In this document: positions 42,124 through 61,393 of the stretch, one piece after another
Layout of the letters: the number at the start of each line of letters is the position of its first letter
Numbering within the stretch: the stretch's first letter is position 1
IMG/VR virus record: IMGVR_UViG_3300005337_000002
From: a virus
DNA: 64,000 nucleotides
Direction: 5' to 3' (one strand)
Position numbers and translations under genes: made by a program
The notes under the pieces: model-generated
Database searches by the model: none
What the model was told of the DNA's origin: nothing
Seen by the model: only the letters and a program-made list of their open reading frames with translations

Positions 42124-43038
42124 TCATGCCTCCGTGAGCGGGATCCCCTGCGCCTTGAGGACCGCCCGCAATTCCGGGCTCTTGACCGCCCCATGTTGCC
42201 GCAGCGTGAGCCCATAGTCATCCACCGCCGGCAACGCCGCGAGGTCGATCCCCGGCTTCAGTTGCAAGTGTTGGTCAAACATGCGCCACCGGTCTTTGAC
42301 GACGTGTTGCGGGCGGTGAAAGCGACGCTTGGTCTCGACCAACCCTGGCCAGATGCGCTCCAGCGAGCGGGCCATGCGCAAGCGGCCATCCCCCTGGTAG
42401 AGATCCGCCGTATTCCCCCCGGCGACCTGCATCGTCGTGATCTTGTCGACCATGAAGGCGTTCACCAGCACGGTGCACCAGCCATCCGTCAGGACACGCA
42501 GGCAGAAATCCGTGTCATCATTGTAGCGCTGGCGCCACCCATATGGTAGAGAATTTAGTACTAATGAGCAGGAGTAGATGTGGACATTCAGCCAGTAGGG
42601 TGGGACTGACTTGAGGTCAGCGACGAACATCTTGTAGGCCAGCCCGGCCAGCGCGATGTTCTGATAGCGGTCCACAAAGTCTTCACAGACGCGCAAGGCA
42701 ATCCCCGCCTTACACGGGAGGCGTCGCCCCTTCCAGCGGCGATAGAAGATGCGCATGTTGTCATCGAGTTGCCAGTGGCGGGCTGCCCCGGTCGCCGTGG
42801 CATGCGCTTTGATCCAGTTGCGGGCATAGAGGAGCCCCCCGTTGTTCCGATCCAGGAGGAGCAGGGCGGCGGTGGGAAAGGCCGCGCGATAGGCCTCGGC
42901 TTCTTGCGGCTCCACGACCAGGGAGAAGGGGACGCCATCGAGCAGGAGCCGTCGCATCGTAGATTGGCCAAACTGGCTGCGGCCTTTCGAGGGAATATAC
43001 ACGGGATACCGGGGGAGGACGGCGCCTGATGGTCTCAT
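42124..43038 (-). CDS. TET/JBP-associated (GREB1-like) DNA glycosyltransferase
   Basis: YPVYIPSKGR, VVEPQE, RNWI, HWQLDDN, YSCSL, YNDDTD, GGNT. Confidence 0.75.
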   Translation of the reverse strand: MRPSGAVLPRYPVYIPSKGRSQFGQSTMRRLLLDGVPFSLVVEPQEAEAYRAAFPTAALLLLDRNNGGLLYARNWIKAHATATGAARHWQLDDNMRIFYRRWKGRRLPCKAGIALRVCEDFVDRYQNIALAGLAYKMFVADLKSVPPYWLNVHIYSCSLVLNSLPYGWRQRYNDDTDFCLRVLTDGWCTVLVNAFMVDKITTMQVAGGNTADLYQGDGRLRMARSLERIWPGLVETKRRFHRPQHVVKDRWRMFDQHLQLKPGIDLAALPAVDDYGLTLRQHGAVKSPELRAVLKAQGIPLTEA

Positions 43039-43862
43039 GCGGGGGAGGCCTTGCGCCAATAGGCTGGGCGCTGGTTCCAACACTTCGTCGCGATTTTGAC
43101 ATAGCCGTGCTGGCGGAGGCAACTGTTGAAAGCCCGCGAGGCGCTCGCCCCAGGCACGCGCGTGCCCCCGACCTCATAGGTCTCGAAATGCCCGATGGAC
43201 GGGGCGGTGAAGGTATTGGCGATCAGCAACGCCCGTGGCTGACACTGCGTGAGGAGCGTGACGAGATGGTCCACCGGGGCGGGAATGTGCTCAAAATACT
43301 CGCTGGCAAAGACGACATCGACCGGGGACGGAAGCAGGGGAATCTCCGGCACGACCTGGAAGCCAAACTGGCGTCCCATGCGTTCCGCCACCCGTGTTTG
43401 GGTGAGCCCGGGAAAATTGGTGGCCCAGAGGTCGCAGTGCGGCCAGAGCTGGCGGAGCGCGGCGGTCGTGTAGCCGATCCCGCAGCCGAGGTCCACGACG
43501 CGTGTCACCGGGGCGAGGTGCGCGGCAATCCCGGCAGGCGGACAGAGTTTGGCCGGCAGGAGTTGGGCCAGATATTTGCGGGAATAGACGACCCAGCAGG
43601 CCCAGAGTTCCGCGAGATAATAGTCGGCGTCATAGACGGCCCAGCATGGGGTGCCCTGGCGGAGGGAGGCATACCATTGCGCCTGGAGCCGTTGACCGGG
43701 CTCCGTTGCCAGGCGCCCCTGCCCGCTGCTGCGCAGATAGGCAATGGTCTGCAGTGCGAGGTGCCGCACCGTCGTCACGTCGCGCACGCCCACCGCGGCA
43801 CAGTCCTCGAGAAAATGCGCGAATTGCGGCTGCCACTCACCGGTCAGCAGTGTCGGGATCAT
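43035..43862 (-). CDS. Class I SAM-dependent methyltransferase
   Basis: VVDLGCGIG, FASEYFEH. Confidence 0.75.
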   Translation of the reverse strand: MIPTLLTGEWQPQFAHFLEDCAAVGVRDVTTVRHLALQTIAYLRSSGQGRLATEPGQRLQAQWYASLRQGTPCWAVYDADYYLAELWACWVVYSRKYLAQLLPAKLCPPAGIAAHLAPVTRVVDLGCGIGYTTAALRQLWPHCDLWATNFPGLTQTRVAERMGRQFGFQVVPEIPLLPSPVDVVFASEYFEHIPAPVDHLVTLLTQCQPRALLIANTFTAPSIGHFETYEVGGTRVPGASASRAFNSCLRQHGYVKIATKCWNQRPAYWRKASPA

Positions 43863-48977: not shown

Positions 48978-49138
48978 GCTTCTCCCTTTCTTTCTGTCCC
49001 GGAAAAGACATCTGCAAGGATGGGAACCACGCATGATATGTGCCCAATAGTTGCCTTGCAGTCGAAGGTCATTTCGAGACATACTTCTTCCCTGTCTCGA
49101 CGTGTCTCTCGCGTCACAGACACCCTGCCGCTGAGGGC

Positions 49139-49453
49139 CTAGCGTCCAACCAGTTCCTCAGCGGCGCCCGCATACTCGCTTTCGTCGTCCGCCCCTGCTT
49201 CGTAGACACGATCCTCTGTGCGCATCCCGAGCAGGATATCCGTCGAGACATGAAACGCATCAGCTAGGCGACGAATCATTTCATGATCAATGAATTTCCG
49301 TTCCCCGTGCAGAATTTTCCAAAGGAGTGTCGGGGAGAGTGAGGCACGATGTGCCAGCTCCGCATTCGTCCACCCTTTGAGGAGCTGTAACTCCTCAATT
49401 TTCTTCACAATATCCCATTTCTGTAATGTCCGCGCTGGATAGCGAGTCCGCAT
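49139..49453 (-). CDS. XRE-family HTH regulator
   Basis: WTNAELA..WKILHGER..LADAFHVSTDILLG. Confidence 0.8.
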   Translation of the reverse strand: MRTRYPARTLQKWDIVKKIEELQLLKGWTNAELAHRASLSPTLLWKILHGERKFIDHEMIRRLADAFHVSTDILLGMRTEDRVYEAGADDESEYAGAAEELVGR

Positions 49454-49542
49454 CAGAACCTCCTTTCCTACTAGACTATAGACCATTTTTCTATTCTAGT
49501 AAAGTTTTTTATCTTTTCTACGATTAAAATGCTATTTTACTA

Positions 49543-49571
49543 TATACATTTTTTCTATTATAGAGTATAAT
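49543..49571 (+). promoter_or_regulatory. Promoter of early operon (divergent region 3)
   Basis: TATACA-17 bp-TATAAT in a very AT-rich gap with repeated TTTTTCTATT. Confidence 0.65.
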
Positions 49572-49779
49572 CTCTCTAGATTAGGAAACAGACTGACAAC
49601 TGAAGAGCCCGGACCCGAGATAGGGTGTCAGACACCCAGGCGCAGTGGAGGCTAGAAGGGGACGGGCAGGCAGCAGGGCGCAACGAGGCACACCCCCCTC
49701 TACGCTGACCGAATCAAACGCCCCACTGAAGGAGCATCAAGCGCGAGAATCTCAGCGACGACGACCGATGAGAGACAAC

Positions 49780-49853
49780 GGTGTAATGCAACCAGCGGCG
49801 CAGATTCCCACGTAGCGCGACTCTCCATGGTGGAGAGGAATGCAGAGGACACC
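49780..49853 (+). ncRNA. Degenerate twister ribozyme, P1 type
   Basis: P1 GGUG/CACC, UAA, P2 UGCA/UGCA, L4 UCCCACGU, P5 CUCUCCA/UGGAGAG, GAGGA; several deviations from consensus. Confidence 0.5.
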
Positions 49854-49873
49854 CATCTGAGAAGGAATGCCCC

Positions 49874-50068
49874 ATGATTCGCATTGAAACGATCACGTAT
49901 GAAGCCGCCCATGGGCACAAACCCCGGCAATCCCGGCAGTATCGCACTAGTCCCTGGGCCTTCCAGATTGACCTGGACCCGACACCAGTATTCATCACAG
50001 CGTCGTATGCGGACGCGGTGAAACAGGCCAAGACCCGGGCGCAGTACAGTATTACCGTCCTCCCCTAA
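49874..50068 (+). CDS. Small early protein
   Basis: GAAGGA RBS. Confidence 0.55.
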   Translation: MIRIETITYEAAHGHKPRQSRQYRTSPWAFQIDLDPTPVFITASYADAVKQAKTRAQYSITVLP

Positions 50069-50249
50069 GCGGACACACACAGGAGACAGCGTCATGGCAA
50101 AGTTTGGACATGTGAAGGGGACGAAGAAAGAGACGAAGCGGGCGAGTGACTGGTACCGCCAGATTGAAGAAGCGACGATCCGCCAGGTGGAAGCGCAGTG
50201 GCAGGCCCGGCAGGTACAAGGTAGCACGCAACAGACAAAGGACTGAGCC

Positions 50250-50660
50250 TTGACACCGACGATCCGAGACCGCGCCAAAAACGGCGGGCAGGGCATGCGA
50301 TGGATTCGCCATGAAAAGCGGTTAGCGTTGTACCTTAGGGACGGATTGGCCTGTGCCTATTGCGGCTATGGCATTGAGGACGGCGCACAGTTGACGCTCG
50401 ACCATCTCCATCCGCATAGTACGGGTGGCAGCAATGACGCCACGAACCTCGTCACCTGCTGCATGCGCTGTAATAGTAGTCGCGGCAATCGGGATTATCG
50501 GCAGTTTGCGGAAGCCGTTGCGGCCTATGTCAATCATGACGTGACCGCTGCGGCGATTCTTGCGCACATTGCGACGACTGTGCAGCGTCCGTTTGATGTG
50601 GCCGCGGCGAAGGCGCTCATTGCCCAGCGCGGCAGTTTTGCACAAGCCTTACACAACTAG
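50250..50660 (+). CDS. HNH endonuclease
   Basis: RDGLACAYCG..TLDHL.P..GG.N..NLVTCC.RCN. Confidence 0.85.
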   Translation: MTPTIRDRAKNGGQGMRWIRHEKRLALYLRDGLACAYCGYGIEDGAQLTLDHLHPHSTGGSNDATNLVTCCMRCNSSRGNRDYRQFAEAVAAYVNHDVTAAAILAHIATTVQRPFDVAAAKALIAQRGSFAQALHN

Positions 50661-51800
50661 TGGTCTCTTTTATCATGCGTTAACACTTGGAGGATTGATT
50701 CATGATGACGACAACGGGTGCTTTTCGTGTATCGACACATGATCTCGTGCGCACTGAGCGCGCTGAATGGTGTGCAGAGGCCAGTTCTTTACGATTTCCG
50801 GTTGGGCGCTGGCCGATGAAACTGCTCCTCACGGACGTCGAAGGCCCAGATATTCTCTTGCGGCATGTCCGGGCCGAACAGAGCGGGGCCGTGCATCTCT
50901 ATGAGAGTGTTGACACGGCGGCGACGATGATCCTGACCATATTTAATGACTAAGCCTCTTCGAGAAAGGACATAGGTATGCGGATTGAGATCATCTACGG
51001 ACAGTCACTGAACAACGGGGCGAAGGCTGTCCCCTGCATCGATTGTCGCACCGAGGAGCGTTCCATAGTGGATGCCGCCGCGGTCCTCGTGTTTGGCCGG
51101 ACGCGCATCCCGCTCTGCGTCCGACACCTCCTCCTCATGGAACGCAACCTCTGCGTGCAGTTAGCGCGGCTCTGTGGTGATCCATCGACCCAGCGGGCCT
51201 AAGCGTGCGCGGGCAGGTTCACAGGGACCTGTCCAGCCTGAGACAACAGGCACGTTCTCTCCGAGAGCGTGGGCGTCAGGGCTTTGCGTAGAAAGGATGT
51301 TCCGTATGGCGAAGTCTCACGGTATGCATGCCTGTCATCAGCGCTATCGCGTGATTGTGACCCTCGAACATCACGGCTGTTCCTGGCAGGCGAGTTACCT
51401 CAGTGACAGTATCCCTGATGGGGAAGCGATCACGGCGTTGGCGTCCGTGTGGTTTGTCGAAATCTTTGATCGCCAGACGCAGACGTTTGTGGAATAACCC
51501 GCATGCCTTGGGACGAGGATCAGGGCACGCAAGGAAACGCATGAACTATAGTAACGAAATCCAGTGCCTCTTATTACAAGAACTCGGCGAGTTGCCCCAA
51601 GGCCGCTTGCGCAAGAAAGTGATGCAACTCGCGGCTGATCGTGGGGAGACCTTTGACAAGCACGCCTATCTTGGCGCTCTCGATGATCTCATCCACCTTC
51701 GTCGCATCAGGCCAGACGACGGAAACTGGGTGTTACTACGACGAAGCTCGTCATGAGCGCGCCAATCTGACCCTTGCGCCCTGGGATGAGGACCAGGGCG

Positions 51801-51854
51801 GGTGTCTGTGGCTGTGTGGCCACACTGAGGAGTCCATACCAAGGACGAAACACC
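51801..51854 (+). ncRNA. Hammerhead ribozyme, type III
   Basis: GGUGUC, stem I UGUGGC/GCCACA, CUGAGGA, stem II GUCC/GGAC, GAAACACC; full core, intergenic. Confidence 0.92.
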
Positions 51855-53537
51855 GAGACCCGCACTGCCTGAGAAAGGACCCGCATGCATCATCCCTTTG
51901 TGGCCGCTACGCTGCTCACCGCGGCGCTCACGGTGGCCGCCGTGCCGCCGGGGCAGACCGCCCCGTTGACTCCGCTTCGCACCAGCCCCTTTGCTGACTT
52001 GTGTACCGCGACCACGTATACCGCAAGCGGCATCATGGCCTGTACCCATATGGTCAATCGCTATCGCCTCACGAAGCAGGGGCACTTCAGCGTCGAATCC
52101 TGTCAGACCGCGCGGGAGGCCCGCACTTGGTTTTTAGAGGCGCTGGACGATCTGGGCTACCGGATCTTTAACGCCGTGAGCGCGGTGGAATGCGCACTCA
52201 TCGGGGAGGCACGCCGCCCATGACCACGCACGACATGGCCCGCTGGTTAGAGCACGATGGCAAGGTCGTCACCATTGATACCTATAGGCATATCTTGAAA
52301 GTGAGCGTCTACGAGGCGATCTACCCCTACACACATATGGTCTGCCGCGTGATGGCCGAACCGCTCGACAAGCAGAGCGCATGGTATCGCGGCATCAAGC
52401 AGCAACTCGGCGATGACTGGTCGACCGATGTGCTGGGGAGCGATGCAGACGTCACCGTGAGTGTGATGCAGCAGGTCGAGTGGTAAAGCAAGCTAGGGGG
52501 AAGGCCGCCCTTCCCTCAGGAGATGTCTATGAATACAGTCATCTGCCCAGAATGTCGCTCAACCAATGTTCACCCTGACGACCCCACTGATCACAATATA
52601 GACTGTCACGATTGCGGTATATGGTGGGAGCCGGATCATCCCACCAATCAACTCGACTCCCCCTATTTTGGCAAGACGTTGCCCTCCAGAGAGGAATGAG
52701 ATCATGGCCGACATGACGGTCGCAACGACGATCCTAGAGCAACTCGGCGGACGGCGTTTTCTCGCCATGACCGGGGCGACGCATCTCGCCGCAGCGGGGA
52801 CTGCCCTCCTCTTTACGCTACCCTCGACGCCGCATTTTGTGTGCAAGGGCATCAATCTTGTGCGCGTGACGTTGACGCCGATGGACACGTATACCGTGGA
52901 GTTTTGGAAGCGCACACGACGAGGCGTCCAGGACGTTGCGCGCTGCGAGGATATTTACGCCGAGAACCTCCAAGAGTGCTTTACCCGCGAAACAGGTTTA
53001 GCGACACGACTGTAACTTTAAAGGAGCATCTCATGGTCCGTAAACCACTTGAGCACAGTATTCGTCCGTGGATAGAAAGCGACTTCGGCCACTCCGGCTT
53101 TTTGCTCACGATCCGTGAACCGTACACCGGCCAGCATGGTCAGGGCTTTTTCCTCGAGGAGGATGCAGCGGTGCGGGCGTGGCAGCACGCGCTGCACCGC
53201 TATAACAGTGGCGAGAATCCCCTCGAATATCTGGACACGCCCTTTGTCGCTCTTCCCTAACGCAGCACGGGCAGGATGGGATCCTGCCCTTCTTTCCTTC
53301 TGAGGAGCACCGCATGCTGTCACCTCTTATCGAGTATGCCCAGCAGTGGCACCGCGATCATGACAACAATTTTGCCCTCGCCTGCGCGGATGAGAACAGC
53401 ATCGAGGAATTAGAGGAGGCGCTCCAGCACGACGCGTACGGGTGCGATATTGCACTGTGGCATCTCGCCGGCGCCGAGGAATGGCGTGCGGGGGTGCAAG
53501 CCGCACTGGCCGAACTCCGCGTCACTGACGCCTAAAT

Positions 53538-53607
53538 GCAGAGTGCGCCGGGGGAGCCCGGCGTAATGCAGCTCCTAGCGTAGGGCTGGGACTCGTCACA
53601 AGCCGAG
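53538..53607 (+). ncRNA. Twister ribozyme, circularly permuted (P5 type)
   Basis: GCAGAGUG, P1 CGCCGGG/CCCGGCG, UAAUGCAGC, P3 UCCUAGC/GCUGGGA, P4 CUCG-UCACAAGC-CGAG; both pseudoknots can pair. Confidence 0.88.
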
Positions 53608-54692
53608 ATACGTAGAGAGGAGGTGCCCACGACCTACTAATCTGACACGTTTTAGTAGATGGTTGACATGTCGTTGCTGACACGAGGAGAAGGACGGTGT
53701 GATGGGCAAGAAACGCTATGTGAGTCGCTGCGCCTGTGGCGAAGTCGCCATGCGCTACCGTGAACCGCATCATGGCGGGCTGCATTTTTCGGAGGGCCGC
53801 TGTCCCTCCTGCCAGACTATGCGCGTCTTTCATCTCGTCTTTCCCCCAGACACGCCACGGAATAGAGCGAAGGCGTCACTGTATGAGCGGGGACACCGCA
53901 CTTACTAATCATCAGAAGGAGATGCTGATGGAGGACCAGCTTTCCCTCTTCGGCTCTCCCGCAGAGCCCGAGGGCATTGAGTATGATCGGGACTTCATTC
54001 TCACGAACCCCATTCCTGCCTTCTGTGCACGGGGCGGCTCTTCCCATTGTCGGCAGACGCAACAGCACCAGACCTCTGAGAGGATCCATGCTCCCTCGCT
54101 GCGCAACGTACACTGCTTTTGGTGCTGGGGACCGATGCGCCCGCTCAATCCTGTTACCTATCGTGCGCGACTCGCAACCCTCTGGCAGCATGTCGTGCCT
54201 CAGTCATCCACCTCATAGCGAAGGAGAAGCCTATGCAAACCCTTGTAGGGCATACGTCGAAAACCACGGCGTATGTCTACGATGAGATCGATGCGGTCAC
54301 TGGCGCCCGCCGCCAGCGACGAGCCTGGCTCGAATACAATCCAACCCGGGGCTATCGGATGGTGACCGAGGTCGCCAATCCTCGGAAGCGCGGCGTCCCG
54401 TGGCGCCGCCTGCCGCGTCGAGATGAACCCTACCACGACCTCGCGGTACTGGTTGTCGATGACGCTGGCCACGTGCACCTCAGTGCCTTGGAGGTCCCGC
54501 TCACGAAGAGCATTGTCGAGATTGATGCCTGGGCGACGCTGCATGCCGCTGGATTGCAAGGTGAGCATGATCAACTGCTGCTGGCAGCGTATCGGACGTA
54601 TGCACGCATGCGCGAGGCCCAACAGCAGGCGACCACATCTACTGTCTAGATGGTACAACCCTTTGGGTTGGCATGGATAAGGAGAGCGAACG

Positions 54693-55109
54693 ATGGGCAA
54701 ACGTCTTGAAAGCCTGCTCGACGCCTATACCGCCAAGCGTCAGGAATACGACGCGTTCCAGCTGCACTGTGCCGCGCAGACCGCCGAGATCCTCGCCGCC
54801 ATCCCTGTCGAGTTGCGTGAGGCCTTAGCAAAAGTTGATGCCGCCCGTGACGCTGGGGCACGTCAGTTCCAGGCCGATATTGATGCCCTCGCGGCCACGC
54901 TCAAGTCTGCGGTGGGTGCGGCGGGACATGCCGTCAAAGGGACGGACTACCAGGTCGTCTATAGTCGTGGGCGGGTCAGCTGGGATACGCGGGCGCTGGA
55001 AGGGTACGCCGCTGCGCATGAGGAACTGTATCAGTTTCGCCTGGAAAGCGAACCGACCGTGAGTATTCGCGCCGTTGCGAAGCAACCCCATTATACAGAG
55101 CAGAGGTAG
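54693..55109 (+). CDS. Gam/Gp157-like protein
   Basis: AAGGAG RBS; GRVSWDTRALEGYA..EPTVSIR. Confidence 0.55.
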   Translation: MGKRLESLLDAYTAKRQEYDAFQLHCAAQTAEILAAIPVELREALAKVDAARDAGARQFQADIDALAATLKSAVGAAGHAVKGTDYQVVYSRGRVSWDTRALEGYAAAHEELYQFRLESEPTVSIRAVAKQPHYTEQR

Positions 55110-55344
55110 CGTTGTATGGCAAATAGTCAATGTTTGCGCGGTATGCGCTGCCCGACATGTGGCAGCGTCGAACCGTTTCGTATTGAAGTCATGACGACAG
55201 TGGTTGTTTGGGATGCCGAAACTGAACCCCTCGATCCTCGGGCCACACCTACATGGGACGCTTCGAGTTACTGTAAATGTATGCAGTGCGACATGGAAGG
55301 CTTAGTCTGTGACTTTCGTATCGAGAACACCTAGGAGACACACT

Positions 55345-55785
55345 ATGGCTGCACGTACCACGTCCCGCCGACGCATGACCCCCGAGCAACAAACCGCCTT
55401 TGAGGCCCGCCGCGACCAGATGCAAACCCTTGCCAAGACCATTGCCGCCATGAGTGGCGCCGACCGGCAGGCCCTGGCAGCGTCGGTGGGCACGATCCTC
55501 ACCTGCGAGCAGCGCCCGCTCAGCCCGCACAATACCTGTATGCTCGCGCACCAGCGCCCGGATGCCACGGTCGTGGGCGGGTTTCAACAATGGAAACGGC
55601 TGGGGCGGGCCGTCCGCAAGGGCGAGAAGGGGAGTTATATCTGGGTGCCGCTGGCCGCGGGTACGCAAGAGCCCGGCCCCGAGGGGGAAGAGGACGCGGC
55701 GACACGGCAGCGTTTTCGCCTCGTGGCCGTGTTCGATGTCAGTCAAACCGACGAAGACACACAGGAGGAGTCCCATGGGGCATGA
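55345..55785 (+). CDS. ArdC-like N-terminal ssDNA-binding (anti-restriction) protein
   Basis: LSPHN, QRPDAT.VGGFQQW..GRAVRKGEKG.YIWVP, VFDVSQT. Confidence 0.8.
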   Translation: MAARTTSRRRMTPEQQTAFEARRDQMQTLAKTIAAMSGADRQALAASVGTILTCEQRPLSPHNTCMLAHQRPDATVVGGFQQWKRLGRAVRKGEKGSYIWVPLAAGTQEPGPEGEEDAATRQRFRLVAVFDVSQTDEDTQEESHGA

Positions 55786-57429
55786 CATGACCTTTGACCG
55801 CACGACCGCCGCGAAAGGGCGCAATGGCTGGTTTATCCTTGACCACGGGGATGTCGTGGTCGGGCAGGATGCGAGTTGGCTTGAGTTATGCTCGAAGCGC
55901 GTCGGAAGCGCTGCTCCTATTAGCGTGCGCTTTGCCCATCCGGCAGATATGCACCAGTTGGGCGCAGCGTTGCTCACGGCTGCTGCGCAATGGGGAGCCC
56001 TGCGCAACCCGTCAAGCGCTCCCCAGATGGCGCCGTGCTCGCCTTCTCCCTGTCCGCAATGTGGCGGGAAGGACTTGTGGATCCGCGTCACGCAGCGCGC
56101 CGAGCAGAAAATTACGCTGTATGGCCCTCGTGTCGGGGACTATCGCTACGACGTCAGCCACGAGGATGTGCAGGATACGACCTATCACGCCGCGACCTGT
56201 CGTGCCTGTGCGTATGTCTGGACACTTGAACAGGCATCGCCCTCACAAGGAGATCACTAGATCATGACGCACAAGGAACGCGCCTGGCAGATTCTTGAAG
56301 AGGCCTTGCAGCAGAGTACACAGCCCGACCAGCACCGCCCAGACGATCACGAGGCCCTCTTGGCAACCGTGGTTGAGCAGTACATTGAGGATGAGGGCAT
56401 CAGTCTTTTCGTGACGTACCCAGGACTACATGAGGTGTTAAGTCTCATCTTTGCCGCAGAGATTCAGGAGGAGCGGCAGCGAGAGATGGAAGAAGAAACG
56501 CTAGAGTATATACACACTGAGGAGCATGCCTAATGGCACAGAGCAAGATCACCCTTGACCAAATTACTGAGGCGATTAAGTCCGGTGAATATCTGGGCTT
56601 TTGTCTCGCCTGCGGGGCGATGCAGGATGGTGTCGAGCCGGATGCCCGCCGCTATGTCTGTGATGCCTGTAACGAGCCGCGCGTCTACGGTGCGGAAGAA
56701 TGTTTACTCATGGTGATGGGCTAGGAGGAACGATGTCGCAACCAGACAAGCTCGAACTGACGAGTGAGCCGACATTAACGCTGGAGCAGGATGCCTTACT
56801 GCGGAAACTCTATCGTCGTGGCGGGATCGTCGTATCCGCTGACGATCACCATATTCTGCATGCCCTCGTGCGGGCGGGGTGGGTTGGTAAACGCTCGCCC
56901 GCACGTATGGGACAGCAGGTCACGCACTTCGTCACGCTGAAGGGCGCGCGCTACTGTGCCCAAGGCAGCATAACGATGCGTGCACCACTTCTGGAAATCG
57001 TAGACGCCGCGCATGCGGCCCATCATGATCCGACGCGGCCGTGCGAGCGGGACTGTCCGCTCTGTCAGGTCGAACGGGCTGAGCAGCATGAGGAGTATAG
57101 CTAAGATGCAGTGTGCACACTGTGGAGGACAGACATTTGAGGTCGGTGGTCCGATCACGATTTGGCGGGACCAGACCATTCGATTTACGGATGCTCTCGG
57201 CAATTATACCGTTGAGCATGATGAGCTTGGCGAGACGACGGAGACGCATGATTGGGAGGAGGCGCGCTGTGCAGACTGTGGGCACGCTCTTCCCGTCGGC
57301 ATGCTCTTTGGATCCGCACCGCAGGACAGCTAGGAGCATGACTTCCTAGCTGTCCGCATATCACGAGTGCCGGACGCTTCTCACACGAGGGGCGTCCGGT
57401 GCCTGGCAAAGCACCAAGGAGTATACCCT

Positions 57430-58371
57430 ATGGCGAAAGCCCGCCAACCGATCCTCCGTCCCGGCGAGCATCATCTTCGTGAAATGGAGCGCCTGCTACG
57501 CCGTCTGGGCGAGCGTCATCAACTCTGGACCGCCTTTGAAGATTTCGTGGCGATGAGTGCGTTCAGCATCAGCAATGCCATTGATCCGCGCGCCTATACC
57601 GAGCGTGAAGCTGCTTATATGCAGATCGTCAAGCGCTATAGTACGGACGAGGTTCAGCAGTTTCCCATGATCTTCAGTCAACTCGTTCTGGCACTAGAGG
57701 CCGAGCCGCAGGATTATCTCGGACGTCTCTTTCACGCGCTGGAGTTACATAACAAGTGGCGGGGGCAATACTTCTCGCCGTGGAGTCTCTGTGTCTGTAT
57801 GGCGCAGATGACCGTGCATGATGCGAAGGAGCTTCTCGCGACCCAGCCGTTTCTCACGGCCTGTGAACCGTGCGCCGGCAGTGGCGCGATGGTCCTTGCA
57901 CTCGCAGAAGCCTTGCGCGACCACGAGATCAATTACCAACAGTATCTCCATGTTACCGCGATTGACATTGATCTTCGCTGCGTGCACATGGCGTACGTGC
58001 AAATGAGCCTGCTCCATATTCCAGGGATCGTCTTGCACGGGGATTCACTGCTGGGAGAGACCTGGAGTACGTGGGCAACCCCCGCGCATATCCTGGGCTT
58101 CTGGGCCGAGAAACTTGCTCATCAGCAACAGATTCCTGCACCAGAGACGTCAGCCGCTCTTCTGCCTGCCCCACTTGATACAACGGGTGAGGTTATCGAG
58201 TCGGTTGACGATATTCCGCTCCCAGTCATGACGACAACTGTTGCCTCAGTCACAGACGAGTTGCTCACCATGATCGCTATGGCGCGCCAGCCTATCCCTT
58301 TCCCTGCTGTCCCAGCGAAGCCATCACCCCCGCCTTCCGTCACAGTTGGAACCCAGCTCACACTGTGGTAG
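57430..58371 (+). CDS. N6 DNA methyltransferase-like protein of leading-region type
   Basis: DYLG.LF..GQYFSP, EPCAGSGAM, AIDID..CVHMAY.Q.SL. Confidence 0.8.
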   Translation: MAKARQPILRPGEHHLREMERLLRRLGERHQLWTAFEDFVAMSAFSISNAIDPRAYTEREAAYMQIVKRYSTDEVQQFPMIFSQLVLALEAEPQDYLGRLFHALELHNKWRGQYFSPWSLCVCMAQMTVHDAKELLATQPFLTACEPCAGSGAMVLALAEALRDHEINYQQYLHVTAIDIDLRCVHMAYVQMSLLHIPGIVLHGDSLLGETWSTWATPAHILGFWAEKLAHQQQIPAPETSAALLPAPLDTTGEVIESVDDIPLPVMTTTVASVTDELLTMIAMARQPIPFPAVPAKPSPPPSVTVGTQLTLW

Positions 58372-60037: not shown

Positions 60038-60307
60038 ATGGAACCTGACCATGTCGGGAAACAGATTGCCCGGTTACGTACTGCGCAGGGCTGGAGTCAG
60101 CGCGAACTCGCCCGTCGCGCCCAGATTCCGTCCCAAACGCTCTCCTACGTGGAGCGGGGGATGCGGGCCGGCGCGCGCCTCACGGTGCGGACCTTGCACC
60201 GTCTTGCGGTGGCCTTCAATGTCTCGGTGGATGCCTTGCTCAACCGGGAAGATGCTGGCGTGTGGTGGCCCCCCAGCGGTCTGTGCGCGTACTTCACGTC
60301 TCACTGA
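60038..60307 (+). CDS. XRE-family HTH regulator
   Basis: VGKQIARLR..WSQRELA..YVERG..LAVAFNVSVDALL. Confidence 0.85.
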   Translation: MEPDHVGKQIARLRTAQGWSQRELARRAQIPSQTLSYVERGMRAGARLTVRTLHRLAVAFNVSVDALLNREDAGVWWPPSGLCAYFTSH

Positions 60308-60375
60308 AGGGCCGTCGCGTATGGCGGCGCAACGGCGGCACTCTACCACACTTTGCGTACTGAGGAAAGGGGGAA

Positions 60376-60774
60376 ATGGTGGCGGATGCGAAAACCCGGC
60401 GGCGGGAACGGTTAGAGCGCCAGCGCCAGGCCCTGGCGGAGCAGGAAGCGCGGGCGCTCGAAGCGGAACGTAGGAAGCGTGACGAGCGCACCAAGGCCAA
60501 GCGTGACCTTGCCGCCGAGTCCCGTGAGATTGATCGCCTCGACCGCGACGAACGCCGGTTGACACTGGGGATTCTCGCGGATGACGCGGGCCTCTATGGG
60601 ATTGACGAGACGCTGCTGCGCCGGGCGTTTCGCGTGCTCGGGATTCTCGATAAATGTCCGGGCGGGCTGGGGCCGGTGCTGGAAGACCTGGAAGCCCAGG
60701 CGCAGCTCGATGATACGTTTGCGCTCGATGAAGCCTCTGTCCATGGGCGACAGGGTTCGATAACCTCTGTATAA
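60376..60774 (+). CDS. Coiled-coil protein, possible mobilisation accessory (TraD/MobS-like)
   Basis: RDERRLTLGILADDAGL; first gene of tra cluster. Confidence 0.45.
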   Translation: MVADAKTRRRERLERQRQALAEQEARALEAERRKRDERTKAKRDLAAESREIDRLDRDERRLTLGILADDAGLYGIDETLLRRAFRVLGILDKCPGGLGPVLEDLEAQAQLDDTFALDEASVHGRQGSITSV

Positions 60775-60787
60775 AAGGAATGACGGA

Positions 60788-61393
60788 ATGGGACTGCTTA
60801 TCGCGATTGGCTTCTTTTTCTTGTGCGGGTGGTTACTGAGCGGCTTTCCGCTTCTTACCGTGCGCTCCCCCAAATCCCAGAACCTTCAGCGCAAGGATTT
60901 CGGCATGCTTCTCGTGCTGGGCGCCCTCGTAGGCACGAGTCTGCTGCCGGTGTCCGTGCTGCATGCTTCCACGATGAAGGGCACGCCGATTGACATTGAT
61001 GGGATTGATGATGCCGCGGCCACGGTAGACAAGCAAACCAAGAGTGGCGCAGGCTATATCTTTGCAGTCGCCGGCTGCTTCGGGGGTCTGGGCGCTCTCA
61101 TGATGGGTTATCCGATGAGTGGCGCCACGACTGCCGCGGGCAGCGTGGGAACGGTCTTTGTCTCCCGCATTATCAATTCCGCGCAGAGTACGGCGCCTGC
61201 CGCAACACCAGACCTCCTCCAGACGCTCTCGCCTGATGCCTGGTGGGCACCATTCACCGTGCCGCTGTATCTTCCCCTGCTCCTGCTCCAACTCATGCGC
61301 CAGCCGACCTTCTGGGTCTGTCTCGCCCTGGCACTGCTCCTCGTGCGTACCCTGCATCGGCGCGGGTACAGTTTGTTCGGGCAGGTGGCGTGA
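60788..61393 (+). CDS. Conjugative pilin-like membrane protein
   Basis: Several hydrophobic helices; immediately upstream of traL. Confidence 0.5.
   Translation: MGLLIAIGFFFLCGWLLSGFPLLTVRSPKSQNLQRKDFGMLLVLGALVGTSLLPVSVLHASTMKGTPIDIDGIDDAAATVDKQTKSGAGYIFAVAGCFGGLGALMMGYPMSGATTAAGSVGTVFVSRIINSAQSTAPAATPDLLQTLSPDAWWAPFTVPLYLPLLLLQLMRQPTFWVCLALALLLVRTLHRRGYSLFGQVA

Follow-up and report, generated by a model that had tools for sequence, protein, structure and literature searches.

A predicted type III hammerhead ribozyme in an intergenic spacer of an uncultured phage

Does the transcript of an uncultured phage cut itself in the spacer between two of its small genes, and what would such a cut do to the message? 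The question is raised by positions 51801–51854 of a 64,000-nucleotide stretch of phage DNA (the window), which a preliminary description had read as a canonical type III hammerhead ribozyme. The window belongs to a 141,598-bp record that has direct terminal repeats and is rated complete. The phage encodes a portal protein, a large terminase, and a primase, and its relatives are very distant: the best matches to the portal protein, from Halorubrum and Brevundimonas phages, are 29–33% identical. These portal relatives are short fragments, none of which reaches the ribozyme region, and a megablast search of 49000–56000 against phages gave no match. The features of the region are listed in Table 1.

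Table 1. Features around the predicted hammerhead ribozyme, in window coordinates.
Feature	Position	Strand	Basis or remarks
Promoter-like site, likely start of the + strand operon	49543–49571	+	10/12 matches to the sigma-70 consensus
HNH endonuclease gene	50250–50660	+	In the small-gene array
Upstream gene (71 aa, hypothetical)	51541–51756	+	Product identical to called gene P0005 in a public protein collection
G+C-rich hairpin abutting stem III	51777–51800	+	8 bp (7 G-C), 8-nt loop, -17 to -18 kcal/mol
Type III hammerhead ribozyme	51801–51854	+	Core, stems, matches to RF00008 and R1, fold, descriptor search
Predicted cleavage site, after C17 of GUC	51806/51807	+	Alignment to RF00008 and R1
Leader (30 nt)	51855–51884	+	Shine-Dalgarno AAGGA at 51875–51879, 20 nt after the ribozyme
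Strand that pairs with 51810–51819 (9/10 positions), competing with stem I	51860–51869	+	Minimum-energy fold of 51757–51900
Downstream gene (112 aa, orphan)	51885–52223	+	Called gene P0001; strong third-position G+C signal
Twister-P5 ribozyme, predicted cut 53564/53565	53537–53607	+	RF02684, 50.7 bits (gathering score 37.6)
ArdC-N-like gene	55309–55785	+	In the small-gene array
N6-methylase-like gene	57367–58371	+	In the small-gene array; weak match

The hammerhead can be read directly in the sequence. As the preliminary description had claimed, all of the core nucleotides and three perfect stems are present in the type III arrangement: the stems have 6, 4, and 5 base pairs without a mismatch, stem III is open, and stems I and II are closed by loops. 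The conserved core is CUGAGGA at 51825–51831 and GAA at 51847–51849, with no deviation at all. Stem III pairs GGUGU (51801–51805) with ACACC (51850–51854) and includes the A15.1-U16.1 pair. The cleavage triplet GUC is G51804-U51805-C51806, whose U51805 pairs with A51850 and closes stem III. Stem I pairs 51807–51812 with 51819–51824, and a U51813-G51818 wobble is possible in addition. In stem II, GUCC (51832–51835) pairs with GGAC (51843–51846) around a 7-nt loop, and the G10.1-C11.1 pair at its base is G51832 with C51846. The preliminary description had placed the cut after C51806, which is also where both covariance models put it. Hammerhead cleavage yields 2',3'-cyclic phosphate and 5'-OH ends.

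Fast cleavage by hammerheads at physiological magnesium concentrations depends on a contact that joins stem I and stem II through their loops or bulges. Loops I and II could form 4 base pairs (51814–51817 with 51836–51839), a pairing whose probability by chance we estimate at about 0.2 (1 in 5). Loop I (UGUGUG) is identical in hammerheads from viral contigs L022 and L072 and in one of the hammerheads of L114. Loop II, with 7 nt, is unlike the NAAA tetraloop of most of the phage type III hammerheads that we compared. Taken by itself, the 54-mer has the three-stem hammerhead fold as its minimum-energy structure, at -18.3 kcal/mol. This folding energy is unremarkable against shuffled sequences (z = -0.9); what supports the element is its core and its topology, and not its stability.

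The Rfam model RF00008 (Hammerhead_3) matches 51799–51856 end to end with 37.1 bits (E = 2.4e-6 in a local search; E = 2.2e-4 over both strands of the full window with all families). Because the curated gathering threshold is 48.5 bits, which is an annotation rule and not a property of the RNA, the element is absent from the listing of a default Rfam scan. The preliminary description had proposed a check with the Rfam hammerhead models, and that check gave a significant match that falls under the gathering threshold. Thus, "canonical" holds for the core and the stems but not for automatic Rfam annotation. The low score can be attributed to the loops, which are unlike those of the viroid and satellite seeds; stem III is also short, at 5 bp, as compared to the seeds. 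Other phage type III hammerheads behave in the same way: 11 of 11, from six unrelated viral contigs, have RF00008 scores of 32–45 bits, all below the threshold. This cut-off is a conservative one where phage elements are concerned.

We also trained a covariance model, R1, on 34 type III hammerheads of phages from viral contigs, with the window's own left out. R1 gives the window element 59.3 bits (E of roughly 1e-13), which is inside the 50–72 bits of the training members themselves, and it has no second match in the 141.6-kb genome. Similarly, our own descriptor for type III hammerheads (core and three stems) finds 1 site in the 141.6-kb genome and 0 sites in 100 genomes simulated with a first-order Markov model. 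Overall, the element has every core and stem feature of a type III hammerhead and falls short of the Rfam annotation threshold. A hammerhead-like RNA was also considered near 60.8 kb and was rejected: nothing was seen in 60300–60840, and there is no R1 match there. In the rest of the genome, we found no further Rfam ribozymes at E ≤ 0.05.

The ribozyme lies in a + strand array of small genes, which opens at an A+T-rich divergent region (A+T-rich stretch 49460–49580). The upstream gene is the last cistron before the ribozyme: its stop codon is 21 nt before the hairpin and 44 nt before the ribozyme. A longer reading of this gene, ORF 51403–51756, has a weak match to PHROG 31488. On the other side, 30 nt separate the element from the ATG at 51885, as the preliminary description had it. 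The downstream protein has a hydrophobic, signal-peptide-like N-terminus. It belongs to no Pfam or PHROGS family, and a protein atlas gave nothing; a set of 5.8 billion proteins contained only the protein itself (from six encoding contigs), and metagenome contigs yielded no match. Nor did viral contigs contain any relatives of ORFs 51403–51756 and 51885–52223. Between the two called genes, the ribozyme is on the coding strand within a spacer of 128 nt. An ORF also runs through the ribozyme, and the gene callers did not record it. Given the called genes on both sides and the third-position G+C of the downstream gene, we consider the ribozyme to be intergenic.

Several other features of the window are worth recording. 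Just upstream, about 340 nt (51203–51540, + strand) have no gene in the public collection, and ORF 51174–51497 is not a called product. A phage tRNA-Asn (26310–26385, - strand) has the unusual anticodon ATT, with A at position 34, and is 46% G+C in a genome that is 61% G+C. The - strand gene at 42124–43122 has a strong match (E = 5e-37) to PHROG 842, a beta-glucosyl-HMC-alpha-glucosyltransferase, a hint that the DNA of this phage may contain hydroxymethyl bases that are glycosylated.

The preliminary description had also noticed a strong hairpin directly before the ribozyme. This hairpin is real: its last base is the one directly before stem III, with a gap of 0 to the ribozyme, and after cleavage 6 nt would separate it from the 3' end that the cut creates. 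By folding energy, the 40 nt upstream of the ribozyme rank among the lowest 4% of all 40-nt stretches in the window. To see this arrangement in other phages, we compared 36 phage hammerheads, which are not all independent: 34 from viral contigs (among the matches listed), the window's own, and one from locus G001. In 31 of the 36, no more than 54 nt separate the hammerhead from the stop of the preceding ORF, and in 32 the following ORF begins no more than 46 nt away. A stable hairpin ends 0–1 nt before stem III in 25/36 cases; of 23,500 control positions taken from these loci, 3.2% have one. Eight further hammerheads, which were found with R1 and are not part of the model, give a similar picture (hairpin in 6/8, short leader in 7/8). 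The window element fits this layout, with a stop codon 44 nt upstream, a hairpin gap of 0, and an ATG 30 nt downstream. The hairpins of G+C-rich and A+T-rich phages differ in sequence, so shared ancestry of the sequence does not by itself explain the feature. Together, the counts of 25/36 and 6/8 suggest that the upstream hairpin is a general property of phage type III hammerheads. The earlier proposal that the hairpin would cap the new 3' end gains comparative support.

Among the matches listed, a core with the stem II sequence GUCC/GGAC is very frequent in viral contigs, and in several contigs 3–4 type III hammerheads point the same way within a few kb of one another. We noticed three other patterns in these contigs. 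In the A+T-rich contigs L030, L041, L053, L082, L089, L090, L092, and L114, a near-identical hairpin, GUGUCUUCAAAGACAC, with variable pair extensions, sits immediately 5' of every hammerhead, and a single contig can have as many as four copies. Among L156–L255, the Ga0307509_* contigs hold dozens of near-identical repeat copies of a hammerhead core from one metagenome; they have a constant A+T-rich 5' flank and look like a dispersed repeat family that is unrelated to the window phage. Also, homologs of the ArdC-N-like protein and of a 63-aa zinc-ribbon-like protein (56533–56724) are encoded 0.5–2.2 kb from hammerhead cores in unrelated viral contigs (L057:7494–7688, L063:2269–2442, and L037:2226–2486).

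Only one close relative of the region came up. In a DNA pattern scan, metagenome contig Ga0068857_100001168 (L242) was syntenic and 84–97% identical over window positions 49781–55075. It keeps both the hammerhead (37.1 bits) and the Twister-P5 (42.7 bits) at syntenic positions; its twister carries changes in the loop of P1 and in the base that precedes the cut. The hammerhead, the hairpin, and the leader are 100% identical in L242 and lie within an 832-nt run without differences (51425–52256). Because of this identity, the comparison offers no covariation and no test of selection on the hammerhead. The genes between the ribozymes are not the same in the two phages: L242 lacks 50660–50970 and 53261–53530, has other sequence in place of 52487–52687, and carries 549 extra bases after 53913. 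Differences from L242 also cluster at 51312–51368, without a third-codon bias.

Another candidate came from a distant phage. Its locus, G001, is the best match (64% identity) for a neighboring gene of PHROG 9437, and roughly 11 kb from that match lies a type III hammerhead (L151:1501–1581, - strand). This hammerhead is not in a comparable position and has different stems, including a 33-nt insertion in stem II, and scores 40.4 bits with R1. As G001 shares only two genes with the ribozyme region, its hammerhead is not an ortholog. None of the 23 viral loci with the PHROG 9437 gene has a hammerhead within 5 kb.

The hammerhead is not the only ribozyme in the array. The Twister-P5 is on the same strand, 1.7 kb downstream, and begins one base after the stop codon at 53533–53535. 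In the RF02684 alignment, its closed P1 hairpin precedes the cut, so the upstream product of this ribozyme would again end in a G+C-rich hairpin. The homology to L242 begins near 53531; thus, the two phages share the twister and the sequence that follows it but have different genes before it. The 270-nt cassette at 53261–53530 (+ strand), which L242 lacks, contains a terminator-like hairpin (53269–53289) and most of a 73-aa ORF (53314–53535), and in L242 the twister directly follows the preceding gene. A further + strand element, at 49780–49857, resembles a P1-type twister (GGUG, UAAUGCA, ... UGCAGAGGA, CACC), with an extra hairpin at the place of P5. It is nearly unchanged in L242, where the homology starts at 49781 and the sequence just upstream is unrelated. 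We did not accept it as a degenerate twister, as it matches no Rfam family at E ≤ 10.

The strand downstream of the ribozyme that can pair with part of stem I changes the predicted folding. The hammerhead fold has an equilibrium share of 0.27 for the ribozyme alone; if the RNA starts at 51770, so that the upstream hairpin is included, the share is about 0.5, and it drops to about 0.02 once 51860–51869 is included as well, although equilibrium models of this kind disregard tertiary contacts and kinetics. The competing fold of 51757–51900 is itself no better than that of shuffled sequence (z = -0.47). In these models, the helix between 51810–51819 and 51860–51869 could lower the fraction of RNA that is cleaved.

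What would the ribozyme do? We consider it likely that this type III hammerhead, in the spacer of a polycistronic phage operon, cleaves itself and so divides the transcript into independently stable units. It is an ordinary member of a very common class of phage ribozymes, and it probably cuts a long early message. We infer cleavage in vivo, and its effects on mRNA stability and translation, from the sequence, the fold, the statistics, the position, and the layout of the family. Stems I and II are local hairpins and would form as they are transcribed; stem III would close once 51850–51854 has been made, and the RNA would then be cut after C51806. At the 3' end of the upstream product, the 8-bp G+C-rich hairpin would be followed by six bases, the last of which would carry a 2',3'-cyclic phosphate. 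Termini that end in a hairpin resist 3' exonucleases, and this 3' end should resist both 3' exonucleases and polyadenylation. The downstream product would carry its 5'-OH directly on the stem I hairpin, followed by the body of the ribozyme, the leader, and gene 51885–52223, with the Shine-Dalgarno site free in the leader. The Twister-P5 would add a second cut and hence a second processing site. With two cuts, the operon transcript would be split, and the stability and translation of each unit would no longer depend on its neighbors.

5'-OH ends are poor substrates for the 5'-end-dependent activity of RNase E. They can also trigger decay, as by RNase J1 after cleavage by the glmS ribozyme in Firmicutes. 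The direction of the effect on stability in the host is a guess. In E. coli, a hammerhead in the 5' UTR increased the transcript about twofold and the protein two- to tenfold (PMC6206723). The processing of polycistronic RNA has been proposed as a role for ribozymes (PMC6765202). Perreault et al. (PMC3088659) showed that clustered prophage hammerheads cleave within native transcripts of about 2 kb, and that one set cleaves in E. coli, and proposed that long phage transcripts are processed into gene-length mRNAs.

Could the element instead be an inactive look-alike or a decayed relic, with an intact core but without working tertiary contacts, and out-competed by other folds? Its RF00008 score is under the gathering threshold, but this is the rule among phage type III hammerheads (11/11), and the independent phage model R1 scores it well, at 59.3 bits. 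Perreault et al. (PMC3088659) list inactive hammerhead-like RNAs; most of these had changes in the core, and the window element has none. The folding energy that is no better than shuffles, the atypical loop II, and the pairing with 51860–51869 that dominates at equilibrium would also suit a relic, yet the full layout is present, from the hairpin and the ribozyme to the short leader and the ATG. We therefore think it quite unlikely that the ribozyme is dead. A working ribozyme might instead reduce downstream expression, either because the 5'-OH product is degraded or because the competing helix acts as a conditional switch. The RNase J1 signal mentioned above would be a precedent for decay. 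Degradation after glmS cleavage has been described (PMC6765202), but a 5' hammerhead raises expression in E. coli (PMC6206723), and the downstream product would start with two stable hairpins and expose its Shine-Dalgarno site 20 nt past the ribozyme. As for a switch, an alternative 9-bp pairing with 51860–51869 does exist, but the fold it belongs to is no better than shuffled sequence, and no ligand-binding domain is apparent. Lowered expression seems quite unlikely.

A more elaborate possibility is that the hammerhead and the twister together excise the 1,758 nt from 51807 to 53564, and that RtcB joins the ends into circular or spliced RNA. Both cut sites (51806/51807 and 53564/53565) are on one strand, and by established ribozyme chemistry the ends would be 5'-OH and 2',3'-cyclic phosphate, which are the substrate of RtcB ligase. 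But the phage genome encodes no RtcB, a terminator-like hairpin (53269–53289) lies inside the stretch, and we saw no complementarity between the two ends. Perreault et al. (PMC3088659) raised this possibility for clustered hammerheads, and circular or spliced products were not detectable for them. We view excision and joining as extremely unlikely. Its boldest form, in which a host RtcB-type ligase would turn this five-to-six-gene RNA into a circular phage mRNA, is very improbable, given the lack of a phage RtcB and the internal terminator-like hairpin. In a milder variant, ribozyme-led gene cassettes might be units that are exchanged among such phages; we suggest this because both the Twister-P5 and the unconfirmed twister-like element upstream have their 5' edges a few bases from where the homology to L242 begins.

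The setting of this hammerhead is known: PMC3088659 and PMC6765202 already describe phage hammerheads that are intergenic, near other ribozymes, and near anti-restriction genes. Because phage hammerheads have been described since 2011, this one alone changes little. Still, a 2019 review considered the purpose of bacterial and phage self-cleaving ribozymes to be largely unresolved (PMC6765202), and the element has modest value as a clean test case for that purpose. It combines a perfect core, an abutting hairpin, a ribosome-binding site 20 nt on, and a second class of ribozyme 1.7 kb on. The family-wide layout of hairpin, ribozyme, and leader predicts that the hairpin would stabilize the upstream mRNA, while the ribozyme would insulate and stabilize the downstream mRNA.

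How does the element compare to known systems? It shares its core, the GUC triplet, the open stem III, and the capped stems I and II with the RF00008 hammerheads (from sTRSV, viroids, and bacteria or phages), and its stem II, GUCC/GGAC, matches the RF00008 consensus. However, it is in an operon of a double-stranded DNA phage, while the viroid and satellite type belongs to rolling-circle RNA replicons. The prophage hammerheads of Perreault et al. are likewise intergenic and on the sense strand, with several ribozymes per operon, and have anti-restriction neighbors (ardA there, the ArdC-N-like gene here). The partner ribozyme differs, as it is a Twister-P5 here and a second hammerhead in those clusters, and the passages that a term search of that paper returned do not mention an abutting upstream hairpin (PMC3088659).

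RiboJ, which combines the sTRSV hammerhead with a hairpin in the 5' UTR, is likewise a few tens of bases before the ribosome-binding site; it removes the upstream RNA and leaves a constant 5' end, and in E. coli both the transcript and the protein become more abundant (PMC6206723). The extra hairpin of RiboJ is downstream of the ribozyme and exposes the ribosome-binding site (PMC6206723), whereas the one here comes before the ribozyme and would remain part of the upstream product. By analogy, the two-ribozyme arrangement would be a natural counterpart of both the RiboJ insulator and the RNase III cuts of phage T7. Dunn and Studier reportedly found that RNase III cuts the early polycistronic RNA of T7 between cistrons and leaves a stem-loop at the 3' end of the upstream mRNAs. 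The likeness to the T7 sites is in the outcome, and they are not of the same family. In T7, a protein enzyme of the host cuts a double-stranded stem and leaves a 5'-phosphate and a 3'-OH, while the RNA studied here is predicted to cut itself and to leave a 5'-OH and a cyclic phosphate.
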